NCBI GenBank assembly: GCA_963675665.1
Contig: OY776510.1
Span: 192,001-256,000 of the forward strand
Direction: 5' to 3'
Length of the DNA: 64,000 nucleotides
From: Spirochaetia bacterium
Lineage (GTDB): Bacteria; Spirochaetota; Spirochaetia; UBA9216
A model generated the notes under the pieces. That model was not told where the DNA came from, ran no database searches, and was given only the letters and a program-made list of their open reading frames with translations. Made by a program: the position numbers and the translations under genes. Of the stretch, positions 20,805 to 41,651 are shown piece after piece (the first letter of the stretch is position 1; each line of letters starts with the position of its first letter).

Positions 20805-20840
20805 AACAAAGAACAGCCCCGTTAGTGCTGAACGGGGCTG
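20805..20840 (-). terminator. Terminator ending the catabolic island transcript
   Basis: CAGCCCCGTT(20814-20823)/AACGGGGCTG(20831-20840) followed by TTCTTTGTT on the minus strand. Confidence 0.65.
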
Positions 20841-20930
20841 CTCATAGAGATTTATATAAAACAAAACATCTTCATCTGCTGTTGGAAGGAATCAAGAGGC
20901 TTTGTTTCATTTTCTTTTACGCATTAATGC

Positions 20931-21893: not shown

Positions 21894-21901
21894 ATCTACT
21901 C

Positions 21902-22882: not shown

Positions 22883-22897
22883 TCTCTTCCGTTCCCC

Positions 22898-24385: not shown

Positions 24386-24413
24386 CCCAAATTCTTTTTA
24401 TAGTATTTCATTG

Positions 24414-24451
24414 ATAAGATCCCCGCTCTTTTTCAGCAGCGGGGATCTTAT
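24414..24451. terminator. Intergenic 14-bp hairpin after the binding-protein gene (terminator or mRNA stabiliser)
   Basis: ATAAGATCCCCGCT...AGCGGGGATCTTAT. Confidence 0.6.
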
Positions 24452-24473
24452 TTTTTATTATTTTTGTTCTAAT

Positions 24474-25442: not shown

Positions 25443-25466
25443 TTTTTGAACCTCCATTTGTTCTTG

Positions 25467-25512
25467 ATATACTAATATATTTTCATACTAATATATTACA
25501 ACGATTTGTCAA
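25467..25512 (-). promoter_or_regulatory. Operator (two partial copies) and promoter of the ABC transporter
   Basis: ATATACTAATATATT (25467-25481) and ATACTAATATATTA (25485-25498); TTGACA(25507-25512)-16-TAGTAT. Confidence 0.75.
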
Positions 25513-25568: not shown

Positions 25569-26357
25569 TTAATTCATCTCCTGTCCACCGGAAACATTTA
25601 CGGCCTGGCCGGTCATATAATCAGCATATTCGGATGCCAGAACAACAAACACTGCTGCTATTTCCTGCGGTGTAGCCAATTTCTTCATGGGTACTGAGTC
25701 TGTCCATTCCTGCTTAATTACGGCAGCAGGACGTCCTGTTTTTTCCGAAACGATTTCAGCTTCCATATCCGTCATGTCAGTATCAACTGAACCCGGACAT
25801 ACAGCATTTACATGAATTCCGGTCTCTGCAAGCTCAAGCGCCATTGTTTTCGTAAGCATGATTACAGCAGCTTTTGTTGCACAGTAGTGACCCAACAGGG
25901 GGATTCCCTTCTTTCCTGCCTGAGATGCCGTGTTTATTATTCTTCCGTATCCCTGCTTTTTCATTTGTGGAACAACAGCTTTACAGCAGAGGAATACCCC
26001 TCGTGCATTAACAGCAAACATTTTTTCCCATTCGTCAAGAGTAATCTCATCGACTGTCTTCATTGAAGTTATTACTCCCGCGTTGTTACAGATTATATCG
26101 AGACGACCGAATTCTTTTACCACAGTATCAACCATTGCGTTAACCTGCGCTTCATTCGTAACGTCAACATTAACGGCTATACTGTTCAGTCCCATTGCCC
26201 GAATTTCAGAGGCCACCGATTCGGCTTTCGACATGTCCCCGATGTCGCATACGGCGACATTTGCGTTATGGGCTGCAAATTCCATGCATATCGCTTTTCC
26301 TATACCCCCGCTTCCGCCGGTTACTACCACTGTTTTTCCTGTAAAATCCATTTTCAT
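25569..26357 (-). CDS. SDR family NAD(P)-dependent oxidoreductase
   Basis: TGGSGGIG, NNAG, NTAS, YCATK, VNAVCPG; start at the internal ATG after GGGAG. Confidence 0.93.
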   Translation of the reverse strand: MKMDFTGKTVVVTGGSGGIGKAICMEFAAHNANVAVCDIGDMSKAESVASEIRAMGLNSIAVNVDVTNEAQVNAMVDTVVKEFGRLDIICNNAGVITSMKTVDEITLDEWEKMFAVNARGVFLCCKAVVPQMKKQGYGRIINTASQAGKKGIPLLGHYCATKAAVIMLTKTMALELAETGIHVNAVCPGSVDTDMTDMEAEIVSEKTGRPAAVIKQEWTDSVPMKKLATPQEIAAVFVVLASEYADYMTGQAVNVSGGQEMN

Positions 26358-26361
26358 CTGA

Positions 26362-27393
26362 TTATGCTCCCGTAACTTCAATAATAACTTTTATGCCTGC
26401 CCCTTTCATTGCGACATCGATCCCTTCCGCAGCCGATTCAAGGGGGAATACATGAGAAACCAGTTTTTCGATCGGGATCTTTTTATCCTCGATAAGTTTT
26501 ACTGCAAGCGGAAATGTTCCTTTTGCAATAAACTTGCCGTGAATATTGAACTCGCCGAAAACAACCGGCGCCTGGTTAAGTTTAACGTTTACTGCTTCGT
26601 TTATACCGAAAAGAACCACGTCGCCGCCTTTTTTTACTGTTTTTATTGCCTGATCAGAAAGAAATCCTACTGCATCGACTGCAATATCAGCTCCGATTCC
26701 GGTTTTTGCCTTTATTATCTTTCCAACATCTTCCGTCTCGGGATTCAGAACGAAATCCGCTCCCGCTTCAAGTGCAAACTGTCTTCTTTTTTCAGATATA
26801 TCTACAACAAAAACATCGGCACCGGAAGCCTTGTAGAGCATGGTAAATATCATCCCTATAGGACCTGCGCCGAAAACAACAACATTCTGTCCCGGATGCG
26901 CTTTTACCGAAGTAGTGGCGTTAAGCACGCATGCAAGAGGTTCGGCAAGGCAGGCGGTCTGCTCAGGAACATCAGCCTTAATCCGGTAAACAAGTTTTTC
27001 CGGAACATTCAGGTATTCCGCCATAGCACCGTCGCGACTGTCTCCTACATGCAGAAAGTTCTCACACAGATTAAGCCTACCCGTCCGGCAGTAGTAGCAC
27101 TTTCCGCACCACAGGTTCGGATGAACGACTACCTTGTCGCCTACGTTTACGTTTGTCACGTCACTTCCTGTTTCAACCACTATACCGCAGCATTCATGAC
27201 CTATAATTACCCCGGGTTTGAAATGAAACTTGGGCGGAACCGACAGCCCGCCGGTATCGGTCCCGCAAATACTCACAGTTTTTACCTGAATAAGAACTTC
27301 GTCGGAATTTTGAATTTCCGGAATATCTTTTTTTTCAACACTCAGAAGCCCTTCGCCTTTAAAAACTGCAGCCATCATCTGTCTTTTACTCAT
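26362..27393 (-). CDS. Zinc-dependent (sorbitol/threonine dehydrogenase-like) alcohol dehydrogenase
   Basis: ICGTD, GHE, structural Zn CGKCYYCRTGRLNLC, AEPLAC, GAGPIG, VVDIS (NAD-type). Confidence 0.92.
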   Translation of the reverse strand: MSKRQMMAAVFKGEGLLSVEKKDIPEIQNSDEVLIQVKTVSICGTDTGGLSVPPKFHFKPGVIIGHECCGIVVETGSDVTNVNVGDKVVVHPNLWCGKCYYCRTGRLNLCENFLHVGDSRDGAMAEYLNVPEKLVYRIKADVPEQTACLAEPLACVLNATTSVKAHPGQNVVVFGAGPIGMIFTMLYKASGADVFVVDISEKRRQFALEAGADFVLNPETEDVGKIIKAKTGIGADIAVDAVGFLSDQAIKTVKKGGDVVLFGINEAVNVKLNQAPVVFGEFNIHGKFIAKGTFPLAVKLIEDKKIPIEKLVSHVFPLESAAEGIDVAMKGAGIKVIIEVTGA

Positions 27394-27450
27394 AAAAATC
27401 CCTCTATTTTTCAAAACTATTAAGCTTAAACAAAACGTATGCCTAAATTT

Positions 27451-28857
27451 CTACAATCTACCCTCAATTTCCGTCAAAATCTCATCCATTACGCTGAAAA
27501 CCCTGTCGTAATCTTCTCTGGGGATATTGATCGGCGGCAGGAATGATATTCTGTTCATGTGGTACCCGTTCAGCTGAGCAAGAACACCCTTTTCCCTCAT
27601 TTTGTTTACGATTATCTTTGTTTCTTCGATAGCCGGTTCCCTGGTTTCTGCATCGCGCACAAATTCAATTCCGAGGAAGATTCCCCGGTTGGTATATGAG
27701 CCAACCAGCGGATGGTCCTTCATCAGTTTCTCAACCAGACCGGTGAGATAGACTCCCGTCTCTGCACAATTCTCAACAAGATTATCTTCCTCATAAATGT
27801 CCAGAACCTTATTCGCTACTGCGCAACCGAGGGCAGACCCTGCGTAAGTACTGACGATATAACCGGGGGCAAGACTGTCAAAAATCTCGGCTCTGGCTAC
27901 AACCGCGCTCATCGGAACTCCGGCCCCAAGGGCTTTGCCGACAAGGAGTATATCCGGAGCGATTCCGCTGTGCTCACAGGCAAACATCTTCCCGGTCCGG
28001 CCCATCCCGGTCTGGATTTCATCGGCAATGAGAAGAAATCCGTACTTGTCAGCCAGTTCGCGCAGTTTTTTAAGAAACCCGACCGGCGGGGTGATATACC
28101 CGGACGAAGACTGTGCAGGTTCAACAATCATGGCAGCTACATTATTGATTTTGGAATAAGGATTGCCCATGCTTGTCTGACCTGTAGACATCAGATTATC
28201 AATTGCCTTAACACAGTACATGTCGCATGAACATTCTTCCTTGTCATAAGGACACCTGTAGCAGTAAGCATATGGAAACCTTTCAATGCAATGGTCCGCC
28301 GGCGGCACGGGGTTATACATGCTATGCATGGCCCCGGAGCCTGTCAGGCCCATTGTTGCAACACTCTGCCCGTGATATGCGCCGTAAAATGAGATTATCT
28401 GCTGTTTGCCGGTATAGCTCCTTGCCGCCCTTATCGCATTTTCTACAGCATCGGACCCGCTCAAACCGAGCCGTACTCTTTTGGGGAAATCTCCCGGGGT
28501 AAGAGCTATCAGCCTCTCTATAAGCTTCTGGCGTTCGGGCGTCGGGAAATCAAACCAGTGCGCGAGTTTTTTGTACTGTTCAGAGAGAACTTCCGCCACC
28601 CTGTCGTCACCATGCCCGATGTTCATCGCGGACATGGCAGAGATGCAGTCAATATACTCGTTTCCGTCTACATCCCACACCCTGGAACCTTTCCCCCTCT
28701 CCATAACGGGAGGATCAGTCCATTTTGTAAAAAGTACGTCTCCCGGATGTTCTTCATCGAGAAATTTAATCAGGCCTTCCTTGTTGCCTTTGGTATTTTT
28801 TGTAGAAGCCAGAACTCCGTCTTTTAATGCTTCATATGGTTTCTTGTTCATTTCCAT
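27451..28857 (-). CDS. Class III PLP-dependent aminotransferase
   Basis: GSRVWDVDGNEYID, SGSDAVE, GAYHG, IVEP, DEIQTGMGRTG, GKALGAG, STYAG. Confidence 0.93.
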   Translation of the reverse strand: MEMNKKPYEALKDGVLASTKNTKGNKEGLIKFLDEEHPGDVLFTKWTDPPVMERGKGSRVWDVDGNEYIDCISAMSAMNIGHGDDRVAEVLSEQYKKLAHWFDFPTPERQKLIERLIALTPGDFPKRVRLGLSGSDAVENAIRAARSYTGKQQIISFYGAYHGQSVATMGLTGSGAMHSMYNPVPPADHCIERFPYAYCYRCPYDKEECSCDMYCVKAIDNLMSTGQTSMGNPYSKINNVAAMIVEPAQSSSGYITPPVGFLKKLRELADKYGFLLIADEIQTGMGRTGKMFACEHSGIAPDILLVGKALGAGVPMSAVVARAEIFDSLAPGYIVSTYAGSALGCAVANKVLDIYEEDNLVENCAETGVYLTGLVEKLMKDHPLVGSYTNRGIFLGIEFVRDAETREPAIEETKIIVNKMREKGVLAQLNGYHMNRISFLPPINIPREDYDRVFSVMDEILTEIEGRL

Positions 28858-28921: not shown

Positions 28922-30058
28922 TTAAGCCGACCTTGAAAGATCTTGATCTATAAGACTGCAAATTTCATGATTTGCAAGTCCGAATGCTTTTGCGACACCT
29001 TCGCATGTACACATGCCGTTATAACAGTTTACACCTTCTGCCAATCCACTGTCAGATAAAACAGCATCCTCAAAACCCATTCCTGCCAGTTTCAGCCCGT
29101 ACCTGAGCGTAGTATTTGTCAATGCAATCGTTGAAGTCCTTGATACGGCACCCGGCATATTGGCGACGCAATAATGAACAACATCATCAACAATGAATAC
29201 AGGATCCTGATGAGTTGTCGCTTTGGTAGTTTCGATGCATCCGCCCTGATCAACTGCAACATCAACTATCACTGCGCCTTTTTTCATTCCGGAAAGCTGC
29301 TTTTTAAGGATCAGTTTCGGCGCCGCTTCCCCTTTCAATAGAACCGCGCCAATAACCAGATCTGCGTCCCGGATCGAGTCCTGAATATTTGCTTTCGTAC
29401 TGTATAAAGTATTTACGCGTGAACTGAAAATGTCGTCTATATACGCCAGCCTTCTGGCGCTGAGATCAAGAACGGTTACGTTAGCGCCCAGACCGACTGC
29501 CATTTTGCAGGCGTTCATGCCTACGGCCCCCGCACCGATTATCACGACATTGGCTTTCTGTACTCCCGGAACACCGCCGAGAAGAACTCCCCTTCCTCCG
29601 AAAGGTCTTTCAAGGTATTTTGCGCCTTCCTGTATTGACAGTCTGCCCGCAATCTCGCTCATGGGCTGAAGGCAGGGAAGGCCGCCTGCTGCATCTGTTA
29701 TCGTTTCATACGCAACCGCTTTCACCTTGTTGTTCAACAGTACATCAGTCAGGGGTTTATCCGCAGCAAGATGCAGATATGTATAAAGTACCAGATCTTC
29801 TCTCAGGTATTTATATTCAACTTCGATAGGTTCCTTGACTTTTACTATCATTTCCGCCGTGTTCCAGACTTTCTCTGCGCATTCAAAAATTTCAGCGCCG
29901 GCTTCGATATATTCCGAATCCTCAAACCCTGAACCTTCTCCGGCGCCTTTCTCTACCAGCACCTTGTGGCCATCATTTATATAAGCTTTTACACAACTCG
30001 GCGTTAAACCGACCCTGAATTCATTATTCTTAATTTCCTTTACCAATCCGACGACCAC
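28922..30058 (-). CDS. ald: Alanine dehydrogenase
   Basis: KEIKNNEFRVGLTP, KVKEP, YTYLHLAA, MSEIAGR, GVLLGGVPGV, DVAVDQGGC, YCVANMPGAV; GTG start after GGAGG. Confidence 0.96.
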   Translation of the reverse strand: MVVGLVKEIKNNEFRVGLTPSCVKAYINDGHKVLVEKGAGEGSGFEDSEYIEAGAEIFECAEKVWNTAEMIVKVKEPIEVEYKYLREDLVLYTYLHLAADKPLTDVLLNNKVKAVAYETITDAAGGLPCLQPMSEIAGRLSIQEGAKYLERPFGGRGVLLGGVPGVQKANVVIIGAGAVGMNACKMAVGLGANVTVLDLSARRLAYIDDIFSSRVNTLYSTKANIQDSIRDADLVIGAVLLKGEAAPKLILKKQLSGMKKGAVIVDVAVDQGGCIETTKATTHQDPVFIVDDVVHYCVANMPGAVSRTSTIALTNTTLRYGLKLAGMGFEDAVLSDSGLAEGVNCYNGMCTCEGVAKAFGLANHEICSLIDQDLSRSA

Positions 30059-30106
30059 CTGGCCCTCCTCCTGCATGACTCTATTCATGCTCATCCTGAT
30101 TTATTC

Positions 30107-30137
30107 ATATACTAATATATTAGTATATTTTTGTCAA
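30107..30137 (-). promoter_or_regulatory. Palindromic operator overlapping the ald promoter
   Basis: Perfect 22-bp palindrome ATATACTAATATATTAGTATAT (30107-30128); TTGACA(30132-30137)-17-TAGTAT. Confidence 0.85.
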
Positions 30138-30180: not shown

Positions 30181-30570
30181 TTAAACCGTTATTTCGATCC
30201 TGTTCTTTTCGGGATCAAAAATGCAACTTTCAAAATATCCGTCCCCGGTTTTGCGCGGCATGCTGACAACCTCATATCCGTCATTTTTCAGCCGCTCTGT
30301 CAAATCAAGTACGGCTTCCTCGCTTCCCGCAGAAAAGACAATGTGACTGAACCCGATATTCTGATATACGGGATCATTTTTATTCTCAGGTATATCAGGT
30401 CGCTGCATTATTTCCAGCTGGTTTTCATCGTCAAACGACAGAAAATAAGACTGAAAATTTTCCGTTGCGTTTACATATTTTTCATTAGCCCTGGCATTGA
30501 AATATTTTATGTAAAAATCCTTTACAGTTTCCAAATCTTTTACCCATAATGCCGAATGTTCAATTCTCAT
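30181..30570 (-). CDS. VOC/glyoxalase family protein
   Basis: IEHSALWVKDLE, LEIM, GFSHIVFS, PRKTGDGYFES..DPEKNRIE. Confidence 0.9.
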   Translation of the reverse strand: MRIEHSALWVKDLETVKDFYIKYFNARANEKYVNATENFQSYFLSFDDENQLEIMQRPDIPENKNDPVYQNIGFSHIVFSAGSEEAVLDLTERLKNDGYEVVSMPRKTGDGYFESCIFDPEKNRIEITV

Positions 30571-30575
30571 ATTTT

Positions 30576-31586
30576 TTATTCCGTTAATTGTTGCGCCAGC
30601 TGACGAACCTTTCCAGCGGCTTTTCTGAGCCTTTCTTCCGACAGCATACTGCTTTCCACGCTTTCGACAATAAAATCTGCAACCTCATGGAGATGAGCCC
30701 CTGCCGCAACAAGCAGCAAATCTGCACCTGCACTAAGCGAATCCACAGCCGTCTGCTCAAGACTGCGGCCCATCAGAATGCTTTTCGAATCGAGATCATC
30801 GCTGATTATCAGCCCTTCAAAACCAAGCCCGTGCGTGAGCAGATTGACTGTCTTAACGGATGTTGACGCGGGTTCTCCGTCATCGACAGCCTCAACTATT
30901 GCAGGGCCGAGCATTACCGTTTTTACCCCGGCCTTTATCCCGGCCCGCATTATGTTCATTATCGGTTCAAGTTCTTCAGGCGAAGCCTTGCATACGGCTT
31001 CTTCAATCGCAGGATCACCTGTAATGTTCGGATAACCCGGAAAATGCTTCAAACTTGCTGATACGCCGGCCGACTGAACGCCTTTAATGTAAGTACTGAT
31101 TATCCTGAGCGCTTGTGCAGCGTCATTTCCCGGAGTCCGTCCCTGAAGCCAGGGATTACTTCCTGTCAGAATATCCGCTATCGGGGCAAGAAACAGGTTA
31201 ATCCCCAGCTTATGCGCATCAGCAGCGGTTTCGGCGCATACGGCTGCAAGCTCCGAATCAGTCATCCGGGCAGCTCCATCTATGTCGGGCAGGGGACTTA
31301 CAAGTTTATGCAGCCTTTTTATTCCGCCTATTTCCTGGTCAACGGCGATTATTGCCGAACCGCAGATCGACTTTACTGCATCAATAATTTCCAGAAAATC
31401 TTCCGGTGCTTCGGTCCCTACCCTTGCATCGCTCATTCCGCGTCCGACATATTCTTCCCTCGATTCTCCGAGCAGTACAGACACACACCCCCTGTCGAGC
31501 ATTTCCTTAACAGGATCTGCAAGAGCAAGGCTGTCGAAAGCCGGAAACATAACTGCGTAGGCCTCTTCTTTTAATGTTCTTTTCAT
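30576..31586 (-). CDS. Single-domain glycoside hydrolase family 3 (NagZ-like) with non-canonical acid/base motif
   Basis: AVDQEIGGIKRL, LAPIAD, KHFPGYP...GDP, IISDDL, AGADLLL; start at MKRTLK (31586). Confidence 0.8.
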   Translation of the reverse strand: MKRTLKEEAYAVMFPAFDSLALADPVKEMLDRGCVSVLLGESREEYVGRGMSDARVGTEAPEDFLEIIDAVKSICGSAIIAVDQEIGGIKRLHKLVSPLPDIDGAARMTDSELAAVCAETAADAHKLGINLFLAPIADILTGSNPWLQGRTPGNDAAQALRIISTYIKGVQSAGVSASLKHFPGYPNITGDPAIEEAVCKASPEELEPIMNIMRAGIKAGVKTVMLGPAIVEAVDDGEPASTSVKTVNLLTHGLGFEGLIISDDLDSKSILMGRSLEQTAVDSLSAGADLLLVAAGAHLHEVADFIVESVESSMLSEERLRKAAGKVRQLAQQLTE

Positions 31587-31596
31587 AAATATACCC

Positions 31597-32394
31597 TTAT
31601 ACCTTCTCATCCCATATTTCAGCATTGTCTTCAAGCATCCATAAATGCTCTTCAAGATCGATCCTGGTCTTCTTCCAGGGGTTACCGTCAAGATGCCTTA
31701 TACCCCAGACATAGTACAGAGCGTAACCCGGAGCCGCCGCCTGGGAATGAAAATCATCAGTAATCAGAAGCAGGCCGTTATGGTGCGTCTCAAAAACCTT
31801 TCCGTTGGTAAATCCCGCACCGAAGCCCTGGGGCTTGTCGTATCGGTAAAAATATACCTCAGGCTGCGGGTGCCAGTGCGGCGGGTAGCTTGACCATGTT
31901 CCCGGAAAATTGACAACTTCGCCGAGCACCATTGTTGAATACGGAGCAGTCGAGTAATCAAAAACCGTTCTTATATTACGTCTCATCTTGCCGCCGATTT
32001 CGCCGTTTGCCCCCGCTCTCTGGGTATGGATGTTGTCTGGTGTATAAAATTTTGGTTCAAAAGCAGTTGTGTTGGCCGACATCTGTATATAAAACTCCGA
32101 ATGAACTTCAGCAGTGATTTCAATGCCGACACCCGCAGGCGTATGCAGGCAGTACGGATTGAAATCAAATTCATCAGTTCTTTCTCCCTTTTCCGATTTA
32201 CCTTCCCATTTAAATTCCGCTTCACCTTTAATAAGAAGAGCGGCAATCTCTTTGCCGGCTTCAATGAATGAATAGCTCTCTCCGGCTTCCAGGACCAGCA
32301 ATCCGACATCCATCATAGCCAATCTGCCTTCGGGACTGTCAAGTTTTATATATTCATTATATCCGTTTGTTATTTTATCCTTGCCGATATACAC
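31597..32394 (-). CDS. iolB: 5-deoxy-glucuronate isomerase (KduI/IolB family)
   Basis: LGEVVNFPGTWSSYPPHWHPQPEVYFYR...QGFG, HSQAAAPGYALYYVW. Confidence 0.85.
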   Translation of the reverse strand: MYIGKDKITNGYNEYIKLDSPEGRLAMMDVGLLVLEAGESYSFIEAGKEIAALLIKGEAEFKWEGKSEKGERTDEFDFNPYCLHTPAGVGIEITAEVHSEFYIQMSANTTAFEPKFYTPDNIHTQRAGANGEIGGKMRRNIRTVFDYSTAPYSTMVLGEVVNFPGTWSSYPPHWHPQPEVYFYRYDKPQGFGAGFTNGKVFETHHNGLLLITDDFHSQAAAPGYALYYVWGIRHLDGNPWKKTRIDLEEHLWMLEDNAEIWDEKV

Positions 32395-32420: not shown

Positions 32421-32454
32421 AAAATATACTAATATATTAGTATATTTTTGTCAA
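32421..32454 (-). promoter_or_regulatory. Palindromic operator overlapping the iolB promoter
   Basis: Perfect 28-bp palindrome AAAATATACTAATATATTAGTATATTTT (32421-32448); TTGACA(32449-32454)-17-TAGTAT. Confidence 0.88.
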
Positions 32455-32500
32455 TTCCTGAAATGCATAAAGATAAAAAATATTACCTTTATAATAAATT

Positions 32501-34396
32501 TCATGCAGCAAGAGAGGGAACAAGCTCACACAGCCATTCAAGGCCCAGCGCCAGAAGCCTGCAATACTCAGGGGCGCCATCCTTTCCGGTCCATCCCGCC
32601 AGCCTGTAATAGCATTCCCGGGACTGCCTGAAGGCTTCCCTGTCGACAGACATTCCGTCCGTTATTCCGCCCTTCAGGGGTTTAAACAGTTTTTCGGGTA
32701 GTTTATCGTCCTCATTCGTGAACCCCTCGCGGATATTAAACACCCTCATCATCTGAAGCCTGCGCTCAGCAACCAGCATCATTTCATAAAAATTGGTATT
32801 CCACCCGGTTGAATAATTAATTGCCTCAACCAGTTCTCCAAGCGTATAGCACATTCCAAACCCGAAAGCCAGCAGACATACGCTGGCAGTATCCATCAGG
32901 CTGTATCCAAGCTGTGTCCGCCAGAACAGTTTTGCCTTTTCAAAATTCAATTCATAGGGGTCCTCCGCATTCTCAAGACCCAGAACCTGCAGGTCTTCCG
33001 CAAACGGTTTGTTTGATATGCTGGGATCCATTTCAATCGAGCAATGATCCGAACCGAAAGGGACCAGAGCATAAGTCAGGGCCAGTGCCGCTTTTGTCTG
33101 GGGCATATGCGCCGGAAATTCCTTGCCCTTTACCGTCAGCAGGTATTGCCGGCTTTCTTCTCCGTATTCTTCAGCAAGAACAGCAGATCCTTTTGCAATC
33201 TGCCTGCCCAAACCTTCTCCCTTTCCGGTCAGTTCCGCTATTTTAAGTGCGGATTCCACATTGCCGAAGCTGCAGTCTATTCCGTCGGTGTCTTCAGTCC
33301 CGATTAGCCCGTTTTCAAAGCACTCAAAAACAAAGCTGAGGGTTGCTCCGAACGAAATTGTATCAAATGCATATGCCGCGGCAATTGCGTTTATCCTGCA
33401 AATTGCAAGCTTGTCGGAAATCCCCAGATTGGAACCGCACATTCCGACAGTTTCATATTCCGGCCCCCCGTATACGGGATCCACCTCATCCGTCTTTTCC
33501 GGATCTACATGCCGCTTACAGCTCTGGGCGCAGGCGTAACAGGTGCCCGGTTTTATCAGCTCTGCGTTCCATGCCGCGGGAGTAAGTTTATCTGATTCGG
33601 AGAACGTTCCCGACTGCCAGTTGTTTGTCGGCAGACCGCCCAGGCCGATATTTTCATCGACACAACCGTCGGTTCCGTCCGTTTTAAACCCCTGATAATC
33701 TTCGCTGTCGCGGATACGGACAGCGCCCCGCTTTGCGATCTCCTTCATTCCCTGTTTGTCGCAAAAATCGGGATCAGTCTTGCCCCTCACCGCGATTGCC
33801 CGAAGATTCTTGGAACCCATCACGGCGCCCAGTCCTCCGCGGCCGTTAAAATGGGCAAGCTCATTTACAATATTCGCATACAGGCACAGATTTTCGCCGG
33901 CGGGGCCTGTCTGTGCCACCCTGATTCTTTCATCTCCGAGCTCTCTGCGGATTTCCTGCTGAGCCGCCTTTGTTTCAAGCCCCCATATCCTGCCGGCGCT
34001 TCTTATTTCAAATTCTCCGTCGTGAATCCACAGGTAAGAAGGCTCTTTTGCTCTTCCCTTAACAACAAGGGCGTCAAACCCCGCCTTTCTGAATTCGGGG
34101 GCCCAGTACCCGCCGGCCTCGCTTGCCATAATCCCGCCGGTCTGGGGCGATTTTGAAGTAACGGCATGGCGCGCGGCACCGCTTATCTTCGATCCTGCAA
34201 TCGGCCCGGTTGAAAAAACCAGCACATTTTCCGGCGACAGGGCAGCTGTTCCCGGAGTCAACTCTTTGAGCAGATAATAGGTGCCCAGACAGCTGCCTCC
34301 TACATATTTCCGGTAAATTTCTTCAGCCGGCTCCTCAATTCTGAATTTGCCGGTTGTTAAATTCACATGTAATATCTTTCCTGCGTATCCTTTCAT
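32501..34396 (-). CDS. aor: Aldehyde:ferredoxin oxidoreductase (tungstopterin, 4Fe-4S)
   Basis: GYAGKILHVNL, KSPQTG, GPAGE, GRGGLGAVMGSKNLRAI, CYACAQSC, GPEYET, DTISFG. Confidence 0.92.
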   Translation of the reverse strand: MKGYAGKILHVNLTTGKFRIEEPAEEIYRKYVGGSCLGTYYLLKELTPGTAALSPENVLVFSTGPIAGSKISGAARHAVTSKSPQTGGIMASEAGGYWAPEFRKAGFDALVVKGRAKEPSYLWIHDGEFEIRSAGRIWGLETKAAQQEIRRELGDERIRVAQTGPAGENLCLYANIVNELAHFNGRGGLGAVMGSKNLRAIAVRGKTDPDFCDKQGMKEIAKRGAVRIRDSEDYQGFKTDGTDGCVDENIGLGGLPTNNWQSGTFSESDKLTPAAWNAELIKPGTCYACAQSCKRHVDPEKTDEVDPVYGGPEYETVGMCGSNLGISDKLAICRINAIAAAYAFDTISFGATLSFVFECFENGLIGTEDTDGIDCSFGNVESALKIAELTGKGEGLGRQIAKGSAVLAEEYGEESRQYLLTVKGKEFPAHMPQTKAALALTYALVPFGSDHCSIEMDPSISNKPFAEDLQVLGLENAEDPYELNFEKAKLFWRTQLGYSLMDTASVCLLAFGFGMCYTLGELVEAINYSTGWNTNFYEMMLVAERRLQMMRVFNIREGFTNEDDKLPEKLFKPLKGGITDGMSVDREAFRQSRECYYRLAGWTGKDGAPEYCRLLALGLEWLCELVPSLAA

Positions 34397-34411
34397 AACT
34401 CACTCATCCAA

Positions 34412-34663
34412 TCATCCCCCGCTCATATAGGGAAGGATTCTGATTTCGTCTCCTTCCTCAAGTTCAATATTCTTCTTTACCGCACCCGTAAGACTTCGGT
34501 TATTAATCAGAATGTTATACGGCGGAACTATTCCGTATTTCATTGTCAGGTGCGCTTTTAATGTTCTTTCCGCTTTTTCAGGCTGCCTTTCAAGATCAAG
34601 AACTTCCAATTCCAGATTTGTCCTGTTTTTCATCCGGCCGCAGTAAACTATTCTGATATCCAA
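34412..34663 (-). CDS. MoaD/ThiS family sulfur carrier
   Basis: 83 aa beta-grasp-like protein ending LEEGDEIRILPYMSGG. Confidence 0.85.
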   Translation of the reverse strand: MDIRIVYCGRMKNRTNLELEVLDLERQPEKAERTLKAHLTMKYGIVPPYNILINNRSLTGAVKKNIELEEGDEIRILPYMSGG

Positions 34664-36576
34664 TCCGGTACCCCTGTGCCGTGAATTTTTATCCTGGTTT
34701 CAATATATTTTTCATCCTTTCCTGAATAACCGCCGACGAATAAATCTTTAATCTCGCATTCAATCCCCGGCTTCGAACTTCCCTGCTTTCCGATAATCCC
34801 TGAAATAAAAACTTTACCCTTGTTACTGCAACTTTTCTTTGCTTCTTCCAGCCCGGTAAAAACTTCCCTCCCCCAGGGAGAGTAGGATGAATAAATTTTA
34901 TCAGTGTCGGAATACCTGATTGTAATTTCAGCTGATTCGGTAATCCTTCCTGTTGCCGCCCCGACAGCATTGGCAACACCGGCATGTTCCGGAATCTCGG
35001 CGTCAACATTCAGTATTTTTGCGGCGGCAGGAACCCATTCGGCCGCCGGTGCGCCTATCGCAACAAGGGGGCTTTTAAGCCTCAGGCTGATGCTTAAAAG
35101 CGGCGACAACTTTCTCCACTGAAATGATTTCTCATCGAGACCGGAACCTGATGCGATAATTGCATCGGCAATTATTTCAATAACCCTTCTCTCCGTTATA
35201 TCAAGAAGATCCTCCGGTTTCAGGGCTGCGCCCTCGGCGGCAATTCTGAACGCTTCTTCCGAAATATGCCTGTTCCATTCTGTAAACCGGCCCCTCGCAT
35301 GAAGAAGATCAGTAGGCGTCAGACCTATTCTTTCAACAAGACCGCAATCAACAAGCTTATCCAGGTTTAATAACTCAGCATCAAGTTTCATTTTATCTGC
35401 AAGATAAAATAGCGAATGCGGAGCTTTTTTCAGACACTCGATCAGCGCCCTGTCGTCATCATCAAGATAACAAACAGCATTCCGTCCTGTGTATGCAAAA
35501 CAATCGGTTTCATGCCATGCAAGAAGCTCATAACCGGTCGGTTTGCGACAGGTAATTATTTCGTCAAGCAGGTGCGGATATTCGGCAGCAGCCACGCACA
35601 GCGGTTTTACCCGGACCGGCCCGACTGAAACCCTTTTATCAGCGGATATCATGATCCGGCTGTCGCCGCCGATCCCGTAGGTATATATTTCCGCGGCCCT
35701 GACGTGTGTTTTTCTGCCGCCCACAACGGCGCCGTCCGACTGCAGATTCACCCTGCCGTTTCTTACCTCGGCTATATCTGTTGTGGTACCGCCCATATCA
35801 AGCACTACTGCATCTTTACGGCCGCTTAAAAAGACACCGCCGAGAACGCTTGCGGCAGGCCCGGACAATATTGTGTCAATCGGATGCATTACGGCATGCT
35901 TTTCATCCATAAGCGAGCCGTCTCCCCGGACAACCATCAGCCTTGCAGTTATCCCCTTAAGACTCAGGGCATGTTTCACCGATTCGACAAGGTCCCCGAT
36001 AACCGGTATCAGCCCGGCATTAAGCACTGCGGTGAGCGTCCGGTCCTCAAAACCCAGGCTTGAAGAAAGCTCATGCGCACAGACAACGGGCAGGTTCAGC
36101 TCCGATCGAATAACCTCTGCTATCCTTATTTCATGTGCCGGGTTTCTTACGCTTGCATAGCCTGAAACAGCTACCGCTTCCGGCCGCACGCCCTTAAGCT
36201 CCTCTACCGCATCCGCAAGAGCTTCGGAATCAAGCGGCTCCTGTTCCCGTCCTTTTATGTCGAACAGGCCGTCTATGAAATATTCGGCCGAACCCGGTAA
36301 TGTCAAACCGCCCTTCTTTCCGATGGACACCAGTGCTGTCTTTCCACGACGGTTCTCAACTATTGCGTTTGTGGCCAGGGTTGTCGACAGACAAACCATT
36401 CCGACAGCATTCAGATTGTTAAAACCAAGACCTTCAATCGAGTTAATAATTCCGTCAACCAGGTTTGACCTGGTTGTAAAACTCTTGGCAGTGTAAAGAA
36501 CATGATTATTTTTAAAATCAACAACGGCTGCATCAGTGAATGTTCCGCCTGTATCAATACCGAGAACCAGAGCCAT
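34648..36576 (-). CDS. Hydantoinase A/oxoprolinase-family ATPase (ASKHA fold), no B subunit nearby
   Basis: GIDTGGTFTD, STTLATNA, TAVLNAGL, TILSGPAAS, DMGGTTTD, GIGGDS, TPTD, ANAVGAA. Confidence 0.88.
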   Translation of the reverse strand: MALVLGIDTGGTFTDAAVVDFKNNHVLYTAKSFTTRSNLVDGIINSIEGLGFNNLNAVGMVCLSTTLATNAIVENRRGKTALVSIGKKGGLTLPGSAEYFIDGLFDIKGREQEPLDSEALADAVEELKGVRPEAVAVSGYASVRNPAHEIRIAEVIRSELNLPVVCAHELSSSLGFEDRTLTAVLNAGLIPVIGDLVESVKHALSLKGITARLMVVRGDGSLMDEKHAVMHPIDTILSGPAASVLGGVFLSGRKDAVVLDMGGTTTDIAEVRNGRVNLQSDGAVVGGRKTHVRAAEIYTYGIGGDSRIMISADKRVSVGPVRVKPLCVAAAEYPHLLDEIITCRKPTGYELLAWHETDCFAYTGRNAVCYLDDDDRALIECLKKAPHSLFYLADKMKLDAELLNLDKLVDCGLVERIGLTPTDLLHARGRFTEWNRHISEEAFRIAAEGAALKPEDLLDITERRVIEIIADAIIASGSGLDEKSFQWRKLSPLLSISLRLKSPLVAIGAPAAEWVPAAAKILNVDAEIPEHAGVANAVGAATGRITESAEITIRYSDTDKIYSSYSPWGREVFTGLEEAKKSCSNKGKVFISGIIGKQGSSKPGIECEIKDLFVGGYSGKDEKYIETRIKIHGTGVPDWISE

Positions 36577-36589
36577 ATACCGCCCTTAC

Positions 36590-38350
36590 TTATCTGGCAC
36601 CGAGAAAAGGAATCGTCTTGCTCATGTTATTTTCAGCAAAAATACCAAGATCATGCAGCATGTGCTCAATATCGGTAGGCTCCGAATGACCCGGCAGAAT
36701 GGCATTCATCTTTCCGCCCATAAAAATGGTGTAGTCCCTGCCGCGTTCTTTTCTCAGTTCGGCAAGCTGTCGACCGTAATCAAGGGCCTGTCCGTTATGG
36801 CAGCTTATTCCGGCAAAAAGAGTCCCTTCTTCATCCGCCAGATCAAGCAGATCAGCGGCATCCATATCAACTCCGCCGTTTACTACTTCGGCGCCCATTG
36901 AAGTCAGCACCCCTTCTACAAGAAGCAGCCCGTAAGTATGCGCATCGGCCGATGCAATTATGATTTTTTTTCCTTTAAGGCTTCCTTCATACCCGGCCTT
37001 CAGCAGGTCTGAAACAATCTCATCTCTCATATCAACAGTCTGCCGGCCGAGTATTGTAGGCTGAAACGGCTGGATATCCTCGGTGTCTTCATCAAATGTA
37101 CTGGGATGAAACATCTGTTCAAACTTGAGAGGATTAAAATTCCTTATAAATAAAATCAAATCCAGCGGATCTTTTACGTCGACTCCTGCGTCAGTGCATC
37201 CGGCCAAGAAATTATCAAAGAAAACCTTTCCCTGTTCAACAAGGATGTCCCGCATCTTCTCAAGATACGAAAAATCCATAAATTTGTCCCACTGATGAGC
37301 ATATTCTTCCGCGCGCTTTCCAGCAAGAAAGATGTTCTGAAGCTCTTCAAGAGTTGGAACGCGCAGCTTTTCAGTAATCGCCACGGGGTTAATGCCCAGG
37401 CCCATATTGTATTTTCGTTCGACAAGGATCTCAAACAGGTATTCCTGTACGCTTGCCCCGTAGTTGGCATGAATATCATGGTCCCACTGGCTGTTTGTTG
37501 AACTGTTTATATAGTGCAGGGCGGGCTGGTCTTCGGTTGAAAGAAGCTTGTCTATTGCCATGGCAATTGCCATTCTGGTATCGCCTTCGGTCAATAACCC
37601 CCCGTAAGCGACCATGTAACGGACATTGCATAACTGTGTGCAGATATAATGTTCGATCAGCGTATATCCTACATACGAGACGGTATCTATAAAATAACCG
37701 GGAAGCCCGTCGTCAAGATAAGTCTTCACCGCGAACATATCGTCTCTCTTCGCAGCAAGAATACCAAGACAGGTTACCATATCGGAAAACCTTTTCAGCT
37801 CATCCGTAAATCCCGGATACCCCCATACAATCTGTGAGAATTCCCCGATAAGCGAAGCTCCCGCCTCTATTGCCCAGATTGTAGTTTCCAGGCAGTTGGG
37901 AGAGGCAAGGTGATAATCGTTAAAAGTTACCTCTATCGGCGCCGCTTCCACCTGGGCTTTGTAATCGTCAAAGGTTTCTGTTACAAAACTGGTTGTTGAA
38001 GGCGCGTTCTCGCGATATTCTTTCGGAAGCGCCACAAGGCCGCTGGGAATGGGCTGAAGGCTGTCCACTGAAAAACCAAGGCGCCGTGTAAATTCGTAAA
38101 GTTCCCTTGTAGCTTCAACCTGTTCCTCAAGAGAAGCCAGGCCCATCAGGATATTCCAGGTTATTTTACCTTTTTTCATACAGTCTTTTTTATAATCAAG
38201 GTAACTCGAATAACCGCTTTCACGTGCGAACCGGCTTTTCCCCGCTTTTATCGTTTTTCCAAGCTTTATTCCGTCTTTAAGAATTTCATTCCCGTTTCTG
38301 TGGGGCCCGGGCCGGAGACTTTTCAGATATGCAAGCTTATTTTTATCCAT
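36590..38350 (-). CDS. Cobalamin-dependent enzyme, 2-methyleneglutarate mutase-like (catalytic domain + C-terminal B12-binding domain)
   Basis: Base-off/His-on motif ASADAHTYG, then GISCHNG and IFMGG; LDDG and TEKLRVP resemble Eubacterium barkeri Mgm as recalled; start at MDKNK (38350) after AGGAG. Confidence 0.8.
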   Translation of the reverse strand: MDKNKLAYLKSLRPGPHRNGNEILKDGIKLGKTIKAGKSRFARESGYSSYLDYKKDCMKKGKITWNILMGLASLEEQVEATRELYEFTRRLGFSVDSLQPIPSGLVALPKEYRENAPSTTSFVTETFDDYKAQVEAAPIEVTFNDYHLASPNCLETTIWAIEAGASLIGEFSQIVWGYPGFTDELKRFSDMVTCLGILAAKRDDMFAVKTYLDDGLPGYFIDTVSYVGYTLIEHYICTQLCNVRYMVAYGGLLTEGDTRMAIAMAIDKLLSTEDQPALHYINSSTNSQWDHDIHANYGASVQEYLFEILVERKYNMGLGINPVAITEKLRVPTLEELQNIFLAGKRAEEYAHQWDKFMDFSYLEKMRDILVEQGKVFFDNFLAGCTDAGVDVKDPLDLILFIRNFNPLKFEQMFHPSTFDEDTEDIQPFQPTILGRQTVDMRDEIVSDLLKAGYEGSLKGKKIIIASADAHTYGLLLVEGVLTSMGAEVVNGGVDMDAADLLDLADEEGTLFAGISCHNGQALDYGRQLAELRKERGRDYTIFMGGKMNAILPGHSEPTDIEHMLHDLGIFAENNMSKTIPFLGAR

Positions 38351-38371
38351 AATAAAAACTCCTGTGTTCAA

Positions 38372-38386
38372 TAATATATTAGTATA
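38372..38386 (-). promoter_or_regulatory. Partial operator upstream of the B12 enzyme gene
   Basis: TAATATATTAGTATA, matching the island palindrome. Confidence 0.7.
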
Positions 38387-38432
38387 CTTTCATCCTGAAT
38401 ACAAACCGCCTTATCCGACAACAAAAAAAACA

Positions 38433-39125
38433 TTACTGGATATACTCCGGAAATTTTGCGATTATATCGTCGCTCTGCTCCAGATATTTATGATCATGAT
38501 GAACTTCTAGCAGCCGGTTGAGCTTTTCCGGATTACCCTCAGCAATGAAATTTACTATATCAAGGTGCTGATCATATGATGATGCAAGAGTATCCGGGTA
38601 GTTCATATCAAGCATCAGAAACCGTACATAATGCGCCCTTGTATTTGCTATAACATTCCATATGGGACCGTGTCCCGAATTAATAAAAATAGCCTTATGA
38701 AACATTGCATCCGCTTTAACATAACTTACTGTGTCATTTTTTGTGATGGCCTGTTTCATAAAAAACAAAGACTCCTGTACAACCTCTTTAAGATCTTTTC
38801 TGGAAGCAGCCAGATCGATAAATATTTCAGTTTCGATGATGTGCCTCATATATGCCATTTCGCGGGCGATCTGCAGATTGATCTTGGAGATGTAAGTTCC
38901 TCTCTGAGGGAATATATCAACAAGCTGCTCATCTCCAAGGCGGATGAGCGCTTCACGGATAGGAGTCCTGCCTACATTGAGCACCTCCTTCAGAGCTGCT
39001 TCCGTTATCGCCATTCCCGGTTTAAGCCTGAGAAACTGAATTGCATTTTTCAGCGATCGGTACACATTTACCTTGCTGCCGTCCATTTCAATTTCTATAG
39101 TGCCTGAATCTATTCCGCCTTTCAT
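38433..39125 (-). CDS. GntR family transcriptional regulator (FCD, RspR/YdfH-like)
   Basis: LKPG..ITE..L...LNVGRTPIREAL..L...LVDIFPQRGTYI; FCD DAMFH...H...HH. Confidence 0.93.
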   Translation of the reverse strand: MKGGIDSGTIEIEMDGSKVNVYRSLKNAIQFLRLKPGMAITEAALKEVLNVGRTPIREALIRLGDEQLVDIFPQRGTYISKINLQIAREMAYMRHIIETEIFIDLAASRKDLKEVVQESLFFMKQAITKNDTVSYVKADAMFHKAIFINSGHGPIWNVIANTRAHYVRFLMLDMNYPDTLASSYDQHLDIVNFIAEGNPEKLNRLLEVHHDHKYLEQSDDIIAKFPEYIQ

Positions 39126-39161
39126 TTAAACATCCTTAATAATTTATAATACAGATTGTCC

Positions 39162-39196
39162 ACTAATATACTAATATATTATAAGTATATTGTCAA
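39162..39196 (-). promoter_or_regulatory. Operator and promoter of gntR (autoregulation)
   Basis: ATATACTAATATATTA (39166-39181); TTGACA(39191-39196)-17-TAGTAT. Confidence 0.8.
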
Positions 39197-41650: not shown

Positions 41651-41651
41651 G

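Follow-up and report, generated by a model that had tools for sequence, protein, structure and literature searches.

The reactions known to depend on adenosylcobalamin (AdoCbl) number just a dozen or so, and additions to the list are rare. To our knowledge, the solved enzymes that combine a TIM barrel with a base-off/His-on B12 domain are all isomerases, either carbon-skeleton mutases or PLP aminomutases, whereas the known AdoCbl eliminases (diol/glycerol dehydratase, ethanolamine ammonia-lyase) all bind B12 base-on and are built from different subunits. Eliminase chemistry would therefore be unprecedented for this fold. A further isomerase, 2-methyleneglutarate mutase (Mgm), is a single chain of ~600 aa whose C-terminal domain carries DxHxxG and whose gene lies beside one for an ASKHA partner.

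Here we describe a B12 radical enzyme gene from a Spirochaetia bacterium, within a stretch of 64,000 nucleotides that was analysed as a whole (the window; Table 1). The gene probably encodes an AdoCbl radical enzyme of amino-polyol or amino-sugar catabolism. Our full reading, in which this enzyme works with a hydantoinase-A-type reactivase in such an operon and carries out eliminase-type chemistry, is possible rather than probable. We infer AdoCbl use, the reactivase role, the kind of substrate and, most of all, the eliminase-type reaction from the fold, the family and the gene neighbourhood set out below.

Table 1. The B12 enzyme operon and its regulatory sites, with positions counted from the first nucleotide of the window.
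Feature	Position	Strand	Evidence or detail
Terminator-like hairpin after last permease gene	20811..20843	-	13-bp stem
CUT2-type sugar ABC importer	20931..25457	-	Pfam/NCBIfam matches; binding protein 24474-25457, ATPase 22898-24385, permeases 21902-22882 and 20931-21893
Two overlapping operator palindrome copies upstream of binding-protein gene	25469..25502	.
SDR dehydrogenase	25569..26381	-	Pfam/NCBIfam
Zn-dependent polyol-type dehydrogenase	26362..27414	-	Pfam/NCBIfam; nearest PDB entries are sorbitol and threonine dehydrogenases
Class-III PLP aminotransferase, GABA-AT/amino-acid-racemase subgroup	27451..28857	-	PF00202
Alanine dehydrogenase	28922..30094	-	TIGR00518, 506 bits, above cut-off; 11/39 loci
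Perfect operator palindrome upstream of alanine dehydrogenase gene	30109..30126	.
Glyoxalase/VOC-family protein	30181..30570	-	PF00903; 5/39 loci
GH3 NagZ-like glycosidase, start uncertain	30576..31691	-	PF00933
KduI/IolB-family cupin isomerase, distinct subfamily	31597..32394	-	PF04962, E 3e-47; 18/39 loci
Perfect operator palindrome upstream of IolB-like gene	32426..32443	.
Tungsten-type aldehyde:ferredoxin oxidoreductase	32501..34396	-	PF02730, PF01314
Hydantoinase-A/oxoprolinase-family ASKHA ATPase, putative reactivating chaperone	34648..36576	-	PF05378, PF01968
B12 radical enzyme gene	36590..38350	-	586 aa, ATG at 38350; ORF and translation, family alignment, AF2 model
C-terminal cobalamin-binding Rossmann domain, residues ~456-586	36593..36985	-	PF02310; GlmS fold and profile matches
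DxHxxG base-off/His-on motif, D469-A-H471-T-Y-G474	36929..36946	-	D469, H471, G474 invariant in 33 sequences
Operator-like palindrome before B12 gene	38368..38385	.	3 mismatches to ATACTAATATATTAGTAT
GntR/FCD regulator, directly upstream of B12 gene	38433..39125	-	PF00392, PF07729; 17/39 loci
Operator palindrome inside promoter-like site upstream of gntR	39168..39185	.

A single-chain B12 enzyme with a glutamate mutase fold

The reading frame of the B12 gene is intact, running on the minus strand from 36590 to 38371 and encoding 593 aa if counted from a TTG. Translation is nevertheless likely to begin at the ATG at 38350, with the TTG at 38371 probably unused, since homologues of 585-592 aa align from that Met, a GGAG lies ~9 nt upstream of it, and an operator site spans the alternative TTG. 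The initial annotation had described a protein of ~586 aa with a C-terminal DxHxxG...S...GG cobalamin domain and no radical-SAM CxxxCxxC motif, and this description is borne out. The sole Pfam match of the 593-aa form is to PF02310 (B12-binding; residues 475-557, E 3.2e-9, above cut-off), S516, G545 and G546 are invariant across 33 aligned family members together with the DxHxxG residues, and CxxxCxxC is absent from the translation. For the barrel part of the enzyme there is no Pfam or NCBIfam match.

Structure prediction gave a confident AF2 model (pLDDT 87.7) of a TIM barrel joined to a Rossmann domain. Among solved structures the barrel is closest to GlmE (6h9e_B, Z 25.4, also 25.2; rmsd 3.8 Å, 374 residues aligned), followed by KamD (Z 23.4), OAM (Z 19) and MCM (about Z 17). 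The B12 domain has the fold of GlmS (1i9c_A, Z 16.5, rmsd 2.2 Å over 124 residues), which it also matches in a profile search (E 1e-5). The likeness to glutamate mutase thus holds for the fold of both domains and fails for the sequence of the barrel: PF06368 is unmatched in the protein and in the genome, and hhalign against 7 GlmE sequences gives a probability of 0.1%, so that any mapping of the active site onto GlmE is weak.

These fold matches, and the fact that the known enzymes of this scaffold are all isomerases, speak for a carbon-skeleton mutase akin to glutamate mutase or Mgm. Such an enzyme would rearrange the chain of an amino- or hydroxy-acid formed from the imported compound, with the transaminase and the aldehyde oxidiser acting on its product or precursor; the aminotransferase is of a subgroup whose members accept alpha-amino acids as well. 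One alignment, colinear though not significant, places the K326/E330 motif of GlmE (TPxEAxGIPTxE) on the family-invariant ITEKxRVPTxEE. However, the three GlmE arginines that bind the two substrate carboxylates (R66, R100 and R149), invariant in the 7 GlmE sequences, are unmatched in that same alignment, and by alignment and model the invariant residues at the barrel strand ends are mostly Asp, Asn, His, Gln, Trp and Tyr. The missing PF06368 match, the lack of methylaspartase, nicotinate and acyl-CoA genes near the B12 gene in the window and related loci, and the persistent presence beside it of an aldehyde oxidiser of 3-4 kinds, which a mutase would leave unexplained, also argue against this alternative, and we regard it as unlikely.

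An unnamed family outside nicotinate fermentation

Two homologue searches with the B12 enzyme returned 316 and 326 relatives, which form a tight, unnamed family. Its members run into the hundreds, come from gut, rumen, digester and planctomycete genomes, and often number at least two per genome. The blocks LDDG, TE..R.P, AS.D.H..G, S..NG.AL.Y and GG..N are conserved both within the family and in a sister clade distant from it, and a natural fusion of a family member to GlmL exists (P0144, P0282). Relatives in the sister clade adjoin a keto-amino-acid thiolase (OrtAB) and P5C reductase; as these enzymes use ketones and cyclic imines, their presence points to the formation of carbonyls as a trait of the family. 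The only named cluster in a protein-atlas list is OraE (score 0.82, a lead only).

The layout of the enzyme, one chain with DxHxxG in its C-terminal domain and with an ASKHA partner, would also suit a genuine 2-methyleneglutarate mutase whose other nicotinate-type pathway genes lie elsewhere. The initial annotation had noted that nicotinate-pathway neighbours are absent, and this extends well beyond the window: PrpF-type isomerase, amidohydrolase and PEP-mutase/isocitrate-lyase-type lyase are not found by Pfam or NCBIfam among the 13 neighbouring proteins scanned, nor are nicotinate-pathway genes in the clusters of 39 related loci. No relative bears the Mgm name among the 120 listed of 316, the 120 listed of 641 or the 20 clusters looked up, and NCBIfam has no matching Mgm model for the B12 enzyme or its relatives. 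Nicotinate genes were also sought around sister-clade members (six genomes via L016) and soil metagenome relatives of P0199, and no Mgm was reached. With a pocket poor in Arg and Lys, and an operator in common with sugar-import, transaminase and IolB-like units, a genuine Mgm is extremely improbable.

A partner ATPase predicted to grip the B12 domain

The gene for the partner ATPase begins 13 nt past the end of the B12 gene. It occurs in 31 of the 39 related loci, directly adjoining 23 of their 38 B12 genes. The protein was also considered as GlmL/MutL proper, which was rejected: PF13941 matches at 26.7 bits, just below its cut-off of 27 and over residues 5-51 only (a weak MutL/GlmL N-terminal match), and NF040745 reaches 29 bits where its cut-off is 475. 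It is instead a member of the hydantoinase-A family.

In complex predictions the partner ATPase docks on the B12 domain with an ipSAE of 0.80, against 0.01 for the best control; the mark used for this score is reached by 116 of 157 solved complexes and by 2 of 215 mismatched pairs. The runs share 90% or more of their contacts, with a partner pLDDT of 86. The predicted interface involves the family-invariant D503, A505, D506 and E507 on the B12-domain side and I107, G109, S142, R144, L174, G175 and R554 on the side of the partner. In this model the ATPase binds the B12 domain at an acidic patch that is conserved; its most likely role is that of a reactivase that swaps damaged cofactor.

ASKHA ATPases also serve as corrinoid activators. 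This would be the role of the partner if the B12 protein were a corrinoid methyl-transfer protein in which a TIM-barrel methyltransferase is joined to its corrinoid domain, e.g. a demethylase of a methylated sugar or amine, with the ATPase as its reductive activator. A MetH folate-plus-cobalamin module is among the lower fold matches (9cbo_A, Z 15.1; Foldseek E 3.7e-9), and relatives give weak NCBIfam matches to the corrinoid proteins MtbC, MtgC and MtaC, limited to the B12 domain. However, AdoCbl isomerases lead the fold matches by about 10 Z units, the B12-binding_2 cap domain is not found by Pfam, and the 39 loci hold no second methyltransferase or folate-linked genes. No Fe-S cysteine motif was read in the sequence of the partner, and two of the clusters (L035 and L038) include a CobA/BtuR adenosyltransferase gene. 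Methyl transfer is therefore very improbable, and a reactivase that serves an AdoCbl enzyme remains our preferred reading of the pair.

A co-regulated operon, probably for a sugar-like amine

An 18-bp palindromic operator precedes five transcription units in the window, that of the B12 gene included. All 6 sites in the window lie within the cluster, against 0.02 expected, and the two perfect copies are found nowhere else in the 5.15-Mb genome. The same operon was sought in 400 other genomes of the phylum and was not found, which suggests that it was probably acquired laterally. The genome has one CobA and, when the canonical inositol pathway was sought, no IolC or IolD above cut-off. The IolB-like isomerase of the operon scores 91 bits against TIGR04378, under the cut-off of 205. 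No riboswitch family reached its Rfam gathering score in the window, and Pfam and NCBIfam scans of the neighbours gave no microcompartment shell genes. The GH3 glycosidase was considered as a core cluster member and rejected, being found in 0 of the 39 loci. A second VOC cluster is present in L014 and L016.

Across the related loci, the most constant neighbour after the partner ATPase is an amine-removing enzyme, for which there are three unrelated solutions. These are a GABA-AT-like aminotransferase, often with AlaDH (20 loci), a HemL-like aminotransferase with GluDH (5-6 loci), and an Ord-like amine dehydrogenase directly upstream of the B12 gene (5 loci; NF040740, E 1e-39). The aminotransferase of the window, with the racemase 9wrf, PuuE/GabT and Ile 2-epimerase as its nearest PDB entries, has orthologues 61-72% identical in the 20 loci of the GABA-AT-like kind. 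Aldehyde oxidation is likewise filled in several ways, by ALDH (18 loci), W-AOR (3 loci and the window) or Mo aldehyde oxidase (2 loci), and the gene for it usually touches the pair of B12 gene and partner. Polyol dehydrogenases and CUT2 importers also occur in the clusters, one of which (L007) has an APC transporter and a mutarotase as well.

The constancy of the amine-removing enzyme would also fit an aminomutase (cf. ornithine 4,5- and lysine 5,6-aminomutase), moving an amino group to where a transaminase or amine dehydrogenase can remove it. The Ord-like 2,4-diaminopentanoate-dehydrogenase homologue upstream in 5 loci echoes the OraSE-Ord order, and the fold matches to KamD and OAM and the OraE cluster, the latter as a lead only, point the same way. 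Against this, the Pfam domains Lys-AminoMut_A and OAM_dimer are unmatched, and the clade of the window gene has no conserved small subunit of the OraS type. The PLP lysine of KamE/OraE presumably lies 11 residues after the cobalt-binding His, and here that position is L482, a Leu in all 33 sequences aligned. The Rossmann domain conserves just one Lys, K547, which lies beside the GG motif of the nucleotide loop. An aminomutase is decidedly unlikely on these grounds.

Some related clusters (type B) hold a true IolC (367 bits, cut-off 300), an IolJ-like aldolase and an IolB-like gene. IolD above cut-off is missing from 3 of the 4 type-B genomes, an absence weakened by MAG incompleteness. Where IolC occurs in this way in genomes lacking IolD, something other than IolE/IolD must create the deoxy carbon.

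Proposed pathway and significance

Our preferred explanation, eliminase-type chemistry, would bring these features together as follows. The enzyme would be an AdoCbl-dependent single chain in which a GlmE-like TIM barrel is fused to a GlmS-like base-off/His-on B12 domain, and the 14-gene, GntR-controlled, laterally acquired operon would serve an imported sugar-like amine, i.e. an amino sugar or amino-polyol. The enzyme would take H from a carbinol carbon, so that a vicinal OH or NH2 shifts onto the same carbon, and water or ammonia would then be lost to leave a CH2 beside a new carbonyl. The aldehyde in this deoxy-carbonyl intermediate would pass directly to the adjacent aldehyde:ferredoxin oxidoreductase for oxidation, the amino group would be removed by the aminotransferase and alanine dehydrogenase, and the deoxy-sugar acid would be handed on by the IolB-like isomerase. 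Were ammonia released by the B12 enzyme itself, some other reason would have to be found for the conserved aminotransferase. The aldehydes could also stem from the transaminase instead of the B12 step.

Substrates weighed on paper were glucosaminate, glucosaminitol, 1-amino-1-deoxy-alditols, inosamines and nojirimycin-type sugars, together with a route by 'cryptic amination' of a keto-sugar (DesI/DesII logic). Since several of these account for part of the gene set but none for all of it, we claim no substrate.

The initial annotation had suggested a new substrate or reaction for a barely explored class of enzyme. A single-chain B12 enzyme in a non-nicotinate context agrees with this, and an intact radical enzyme of an unnamed family, with a helper, in a co-regulated operon for a sugar-like amine probably points to undescribed B12 chemistry. 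Although its members number in the hundreds, the family is unnamed and is described by no family model; our literature search, whose coverage most subscription journals fell outside, gave no paper on it or on a B12-dependent step in the catabolism of amino sugars. The operon supplies an importer, a regulator with its operator, a partner ATPase and coupling enzymes, which puts the question within direct experimental reach.

Eliminase-like chemistry, if borne out, would overturn the rule that B12 enzymes of the base-off/His-on kind are isomerases, and would also reveal a hidden route for amino sugars and amino-polyols in anaerobes. In its widest form, which we consider doubtful, this would be the first glutamate-mutase-type (base-off/His-on) AdoCbl eliminase acting on a carbohydrate-derived amine or polyol. 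It would offer anaerobes an IolE/IolD-independent B12 entry to the IolB/IolC/IolJ-type deoxy-sugar-acid pathway, would bring with it a new hydantoinase-type reactivase that grips the B12 domain and, with the sister clade (OrtAB, P5C reductase), would define a new carbonyl-forming class.

Comparison with known B12 systems

The AdoCbl eliminases (PduCDE/PduGH/PduP and EutBC/EutA/EutE) may have their logic in common with this operon, namely a radical 1,2-shift, elimination, adjacent aldehyde oxidation and an ASKHA reactivase. They belong to unrelated protein families, and they are base-on whereas the DxHxxG motif here points to base-off binding. No PduC/EutB-type large subunit is matched by Pfam or NCBIfam in the B12 enzyme, so the likeness is one of mode of work and not of membership.

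Mgm of E. barkeri (EC 5.4.99.4, with MgmL) has a like layout, in which a single chain with a C-terminal DxHxxG adjoins an ASKHA gene, but its nicotinate-fermentation context is missing throughout the family sample. KamDE and OraSE (1XRS, 8T0V, 3KP1; Ord and OrtAB downstream) have a related barrel (Z 19-23) and a like pathway logic, a B12 step followed by amine removal, and some family clades have Ord- or OrtAB-like neighbours. In contrast to these aminomutases, the enzyme here lacks the PLP-lysine where one would be expected, as well as the aminomutase Pfam domains and a small subunit, and its neighbours are of carbohydrate type.

Glutamate mutase (GlmE and GlmS with GlmL/MutL; 1CB7, 1I9C, 6H9E) has a like TIM barrel and base-off/His-on Rossmann domain with an adjoining ASKHA gene. 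Relatives of the present family are fused to GlmL, and an adenosyl-ribose motif may be common to both, judging from a weak alignment. Glutamate mutase consists of two subunits and works in glutamate fermentation with MutL as its partner, whereas the enzyme described here is one chain, set in sugar and amine catabolism beside a hydantoinase-A-like partner.

The B12 gene and its family

The open reading frame of the B12 enzyme is intact (ORF reading and translation). The ATG at 38350 is its likely start codon, giving a protein of 586 aa, because homologues of 585-592 aa begin their alignment at the same Met, a GGAG lies ~9 nt upstream and the upstream TTG is overlapped by an operator-like site. 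The initial annotation had described a protein of ~586 aa with C-terminal cobalamin motifs and no CxxxCxxC, and all of this was borne out by the ORF, PF02310 and a 33-member alignment. D469-x-H471-x-x-G474, S516 and G545-G546 are invariant across the 33 family members, and CxxxCxxC is absent from the translation. The B12-binding domain PF02310 is the sole Pfam match (E 3.2e-9), and from NCBIfam there is only a sub-threshold match to glutamate mutase S, restricted to the same domain.

The family is tight and widespread. A word-indexed search returned 316 relatives, the best 120 of which are all 55-98% identical to the B12 enzyme and are named only 'cobalamin-dependent protein' or with a generic mutase B12-subunit label. 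HMMER, run exhaustively against 1.84 billion representatives, found 326 proteins at E <= 0.001 and 74 at E <= 1e-30. The 76 full-length members form two clades in a tree: the window gene groups with every full-length genome locus (38), and a sister clade stands at 25-30% identity. Several genomes carry at least two family copies; the genome studied here has one. Two sister-clade members, P0144 (857 aa) and P0282 (1066 aa), are naturally fused to GlmL (GlmL/MutL part of the fusion: NF040745, E 7.6e-43, residues 595-733).

Sister-clade genes in six genomes neighbour MutL, OrtA/OrtB, P5C reductase, a glycyl-radical enzyme with activase, and proline-racemase-family genes; relatives from soil metagenomes gave no informative gene context. 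The sister-clade surroundings suggest another B12 pathway, likewise uncharacterised, that seems to serve the fermentation of amino acids (of a hydroxyproline- or ornithine-like kind). At loci L050-L052 and L063-L066 (genomes G001, G014, G099 and G120), sister-clade relatives repeatedly adjoin MutL/GlmL, OrtA+OrtB (2-amino-4-oxopentanoate thiolase) and P5C reductase, and the same loci also hold the glycyl-radical enzyme with activase and a proline-racemase-family gene.

A likeness to 2-methyleneglutarate mutase (Mgm) of E. barkeri had been proposed. None of the relatives listed in the family searches and cluster look-ups bears that label, NCBIfam holds no model for Mgm and none matching the family, and nicotinate clusters were not found around the sister-clade genes in six genomes; that the enzyme is a true Mgm is highly improbable. 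Passages of three papers mention Mgm by citation only (PMC2667541, PMC7617358, PMC8473912). In a literature search that covered few subscription journals, no paper dealt with this B12 family, none described a B12 chaperone of hydantoinase type, and none placed a B12 step in the breakdown of amino sugars or inositol-like compounds.

The family profile at E <= 1e-40 had no match in a sample of 400 other genomes from the phylum (1 of 401 with the genome itself; some incomplete), and at E <= 1e-20 none in 40 relatives, including five of the same genus and five of the same family (1 of 41; some incomplete). The operon as a whole, likewise not found in these samples, shares its synteny, down to each gene, with a locus of a Christensenellaceae MAG (L009), at 44-76% identity per protein. 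The simplest explanation is that the operon was acquired laterally as a unit.

The operon and its putative operator

The cluster comprises fourteen genes on one strand, with a strong terminator-like hairpin behind the last. A promoter-like TTGACA-17-TAGTAT precedes four genes of the cluster (gntR and those for the IolB-like protein, alanine dehydrogenase and the binding protein), each time with an 18-bp palindrome, ATACTAATATATTAGTAT, inside it; a fifth, degenerate copy lies 18 nt ahead of the B12 start codon. The window has six matches at <=3 mismatches, all in the B12 cluster (0.02 expected from shuffles), and the two perfect copies are unique in the 5.15-Mb genome. Eight sites occur genome-wide at <=3 mismatches, six of them in the cluster; with 3 mismatches allowed, the reversed control gives 18, a high background against which the remaining two carry little weight. 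The cluster's GntR regulator may use the palindrome as its operator and, since these units have it in common, expression of the B12 gene is very probably coordinated with that of the importer, transaminase and isomerase units.

Features of the B12 cluster and its surroundings (window coordinates)
Feature	Position	Strand	Remark
Operon	20931-39185		compared with L009
1 GntR/FCD regulator			
2 B12 enzyme, open frame	36590-38371	minus	likely start 38350
3 Hydantoinase-A-type ATPase	34648-36576	minus	13-nt gap behind B12 gene
4 Aldehyde:ferredoxin oxidoreductase (AOR)			
5 KduI/IolB-family isomerase			
6 GH3 (NagZ-like)	30576-31691		
7 Glyoxalase-family protein			
8 Alanine dehydrogenase (AlaDH)			equivalog match
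9 Class-III aminotransferase			
10 Zn-dehydrogenase			
11 SDR			
12-14 CUT2 sugar ABC importer			binding protein, ATPase, two permeases
Palindrome sites	25469-25502, 30109-30126, 32426-32443, 38368-38385, 39168-39185		
ORF, 146 aa	39293-39733	minus	between regulator gene and argR
Arginine-biosynthesis block	40125-44977	plus	adjoins operon

The GH3 gene has a counterpart in none of 39 related loci, and may be a local addition hinting at a glycosidic substrate precursor in this organism. In the adjoining arginine block, ArgR was annotated by Pfam/NCBIfam and the ArgC-, ArgB-, ArgD- and ArgG-like ORFs were assigned by eye; the 146-aa ORF may be spurious.

Conserved neighbourhoods

The 39 related loci, from one-genome-per-species contigs, come mostly from Clostridia, with others from Planctomycetota. 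Searched by tblastn with the window's proteins, they contain the partner ATPase (31/39), class-III aminotransferase (29), SDR (20), IolB-like protein (18), GntR, Zn-dehydrogenase and ABC ATPase (17 each), AlaDH (11), glyoxalase-like protein (5) and AOR (3). Clustering all ORFs of the loci and scanning representatives added a non-acylating aldehyde dehydrogenase (ALDH; 18 loci), class-II aldolase (10), ROK-like protein (9), FGGY kinase and xylose-isomerase-like barrel (6 each), glutamate dehydrogenase, HemL-like second aminotransferase and Ord-like amine dehydrogenase (5 each; the last NF040740, E 1e-39), and transaldolase/FSA and PfkB kinase (4 each). A Mo aldehyde-oxidase-type enzyme adjoins the B12 gene at two loci, three clostridial clusters (L003, L009, L017) have an archaeal-type (type II) phosphorylating GAPDH with PGK beside them, and L007 has an additional APC-type transporter and mutarotase.

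Amine removal has three alternative solutions, covering ~34 of the 39 loci in all (the remaining five include short contigs). Aldehyde oxidation is represented by ALDH, W-AOR or the Mo-enzyme in 23/39, the gene usually touching the B12-partner pair. Alternative enzymes in both roles indicate that the two functions are kept and the proteins exchanged. The PfkB kinase of L008 is a true IolC (TIGR04382, 367 bits, cut-off 300), and all four type-B genomes examined (clusters with IolC and the IolB-like gene) have their own IolC inside the cluster; no IolD scored above cut-off in three of these four assemblies, which are MAGs, so that absence is not proven.

The partner ATPase

The partner (642 aa) has hydantoinase N and A domains and resembles MutL/GlmL in its first 50 residues only. 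It was co-folded with enzyme residues 440-586, each chain given as an alignment. The pair reached an ipSAE of 0.80 (three runs 0.81, 0.80, 0.80) against 0.01 for the best control; the mark is passed by 116/157 solved complexes and 2/215 mismatched pairs, counts that apply here approximately, as the pair was folded from our own alignments. At least 90% of contacts agreed between runs, with a partner pLDDT of 86. The predicted interface involves enzyme residues 492-535, including the invariant D503, A505, D506 and E507, and partner residues 106-108, 140-144, 174-177, 554-558 and 612-626; I107, G109, S142, R144, L174, G175 and R554 are the partner's invariant interface residues. We know of no solved complex of a hydantoinase-type ATPase with such a B12 domain, and in the PDB the partner is related to carboxylases and oxoprolinases, so the model's memory of solved structures is an unlikely source of this result. 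The co-fold supports binding of the partner, a predicted conserved docking protein, to the B12 domain. By analogy with DdrAB, EutA, KamBC and GlmL, precedents for such a role, it would serve as reactivase of the enzyme.

Proposed substrate and reaction

The co-regulated operon's conserved functions are import of a sugar-like compound, amine removal, aldehyde oxidation, polyol-type redox and IolB-like isomerisation, and we infer an amino sugar or amino-polyol as the substrate of the pathway. We also infer AdoCbl as cofactor because of the scaffold, the CobA/BtuR ATP:corrinoid adenosyltransferase within two clusters (L035:2771-3298 and L038), the ASKHA partner and the one CobA in the own genome; a methyl-corrinoid protein is very unlikely.

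Our preferred reading, held tentatively at somewhat below even chance, is an eliminase-type reaction. The enzyme would carry out a 1,2-shift with elimination, leaving a CH2 beside a new carbonyl: R-CHOH-CH2OH (or R-CH(NH2)-CH2OH) would give R-CH2-CHO and then R-CH2-COOH. Exactly this sequence would result from a B12 eliminase working with an aldehyde oxidiser, and four unrelated aldehyde oxidisers alternate beside the B12 gene. The family-associated lower-pathway enzymes handle deoxy-sugar acids, yet IolE and IolD, which usually generate the deoxy carbon, are absent from most clusters. The sister clade, too, adjoins genes for enzymes that use up carbonyl products (keto-amino-acid thiolase, imine reductase). 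Against an eliminase, the constant transaminase is unexplained if the B12 step itself frees ammonia.

Comparison with known B12 enzymes

The AlphaFold2 model, built on the 33-sequence alignment (pLDDT 87.7, pTM 0.87), has an eight-stranded barrel (~60-330) joined by a helical linker to a Rossmann domain (~456-586), giving a base-off-type B12 domain on a GlmE-like barrel. Its top Foldseek matches are AdoCbl isomerases. Glutamate mutase E ranks first by fold (VIA-align; 6h9e_B, Z 25.4, rmsd 3.8 A, 374 aligned, 12% identity; 1cb7_B, Z 25.2), with methylmalonyl-CoA mutase at Z ~17, and the C-terminal domain matches GlmS (Z 16.5, rmsd 2.2 A, 124 aligned). To our knowledge no enzyme of the GlmE-type scaffold performs an elimination, which counts against the eliminase. 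A carbon-skeleton mutase is unlikely, at about half the weight given to the eliminase. Lysine 5,6-aminomutase KamD (Z 21.7-23.4) and ornithine aminomutase (Z ~19) also match the model; an aminomutase is slightly less likely still, and what probability remains falls to something else.

Sequence matches to solved structures are confined to the B12 domain; PF06368 (GlmE) has no match in the enzyme, and profile-profile comparison of the family with seven GlmE sequences was not significant. A forced local alignment of these non-significant profiles is colinear across 429 columns and sets the family-invariant ITEK-x-R-V-P-T-x-E-E opposite GlmE T-P-x-E-A-x-G-I-P-T-x-E, which includes K326 and E330, contacts of the adenosyl ribose; GlmE's three substrate arginines are unpaired. 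At most, the alignment gives a hint of a GlmE-like adenosyl-ribose motif and of substrate arginines that the family may lack. At the barrel strand ends the invariant residues are mostly Asp, Asn, His, Gln, Trp and Tyr (alignment and model); such side chains would accommodate a polyol or a cationic amine more readily than a dicarboxylate. We regard the B12 enzyme as a member of the GlmE/GlmS structural class of AdoCbl enzymes whose substrate is very probably new and whose type of reaction may be new as well.
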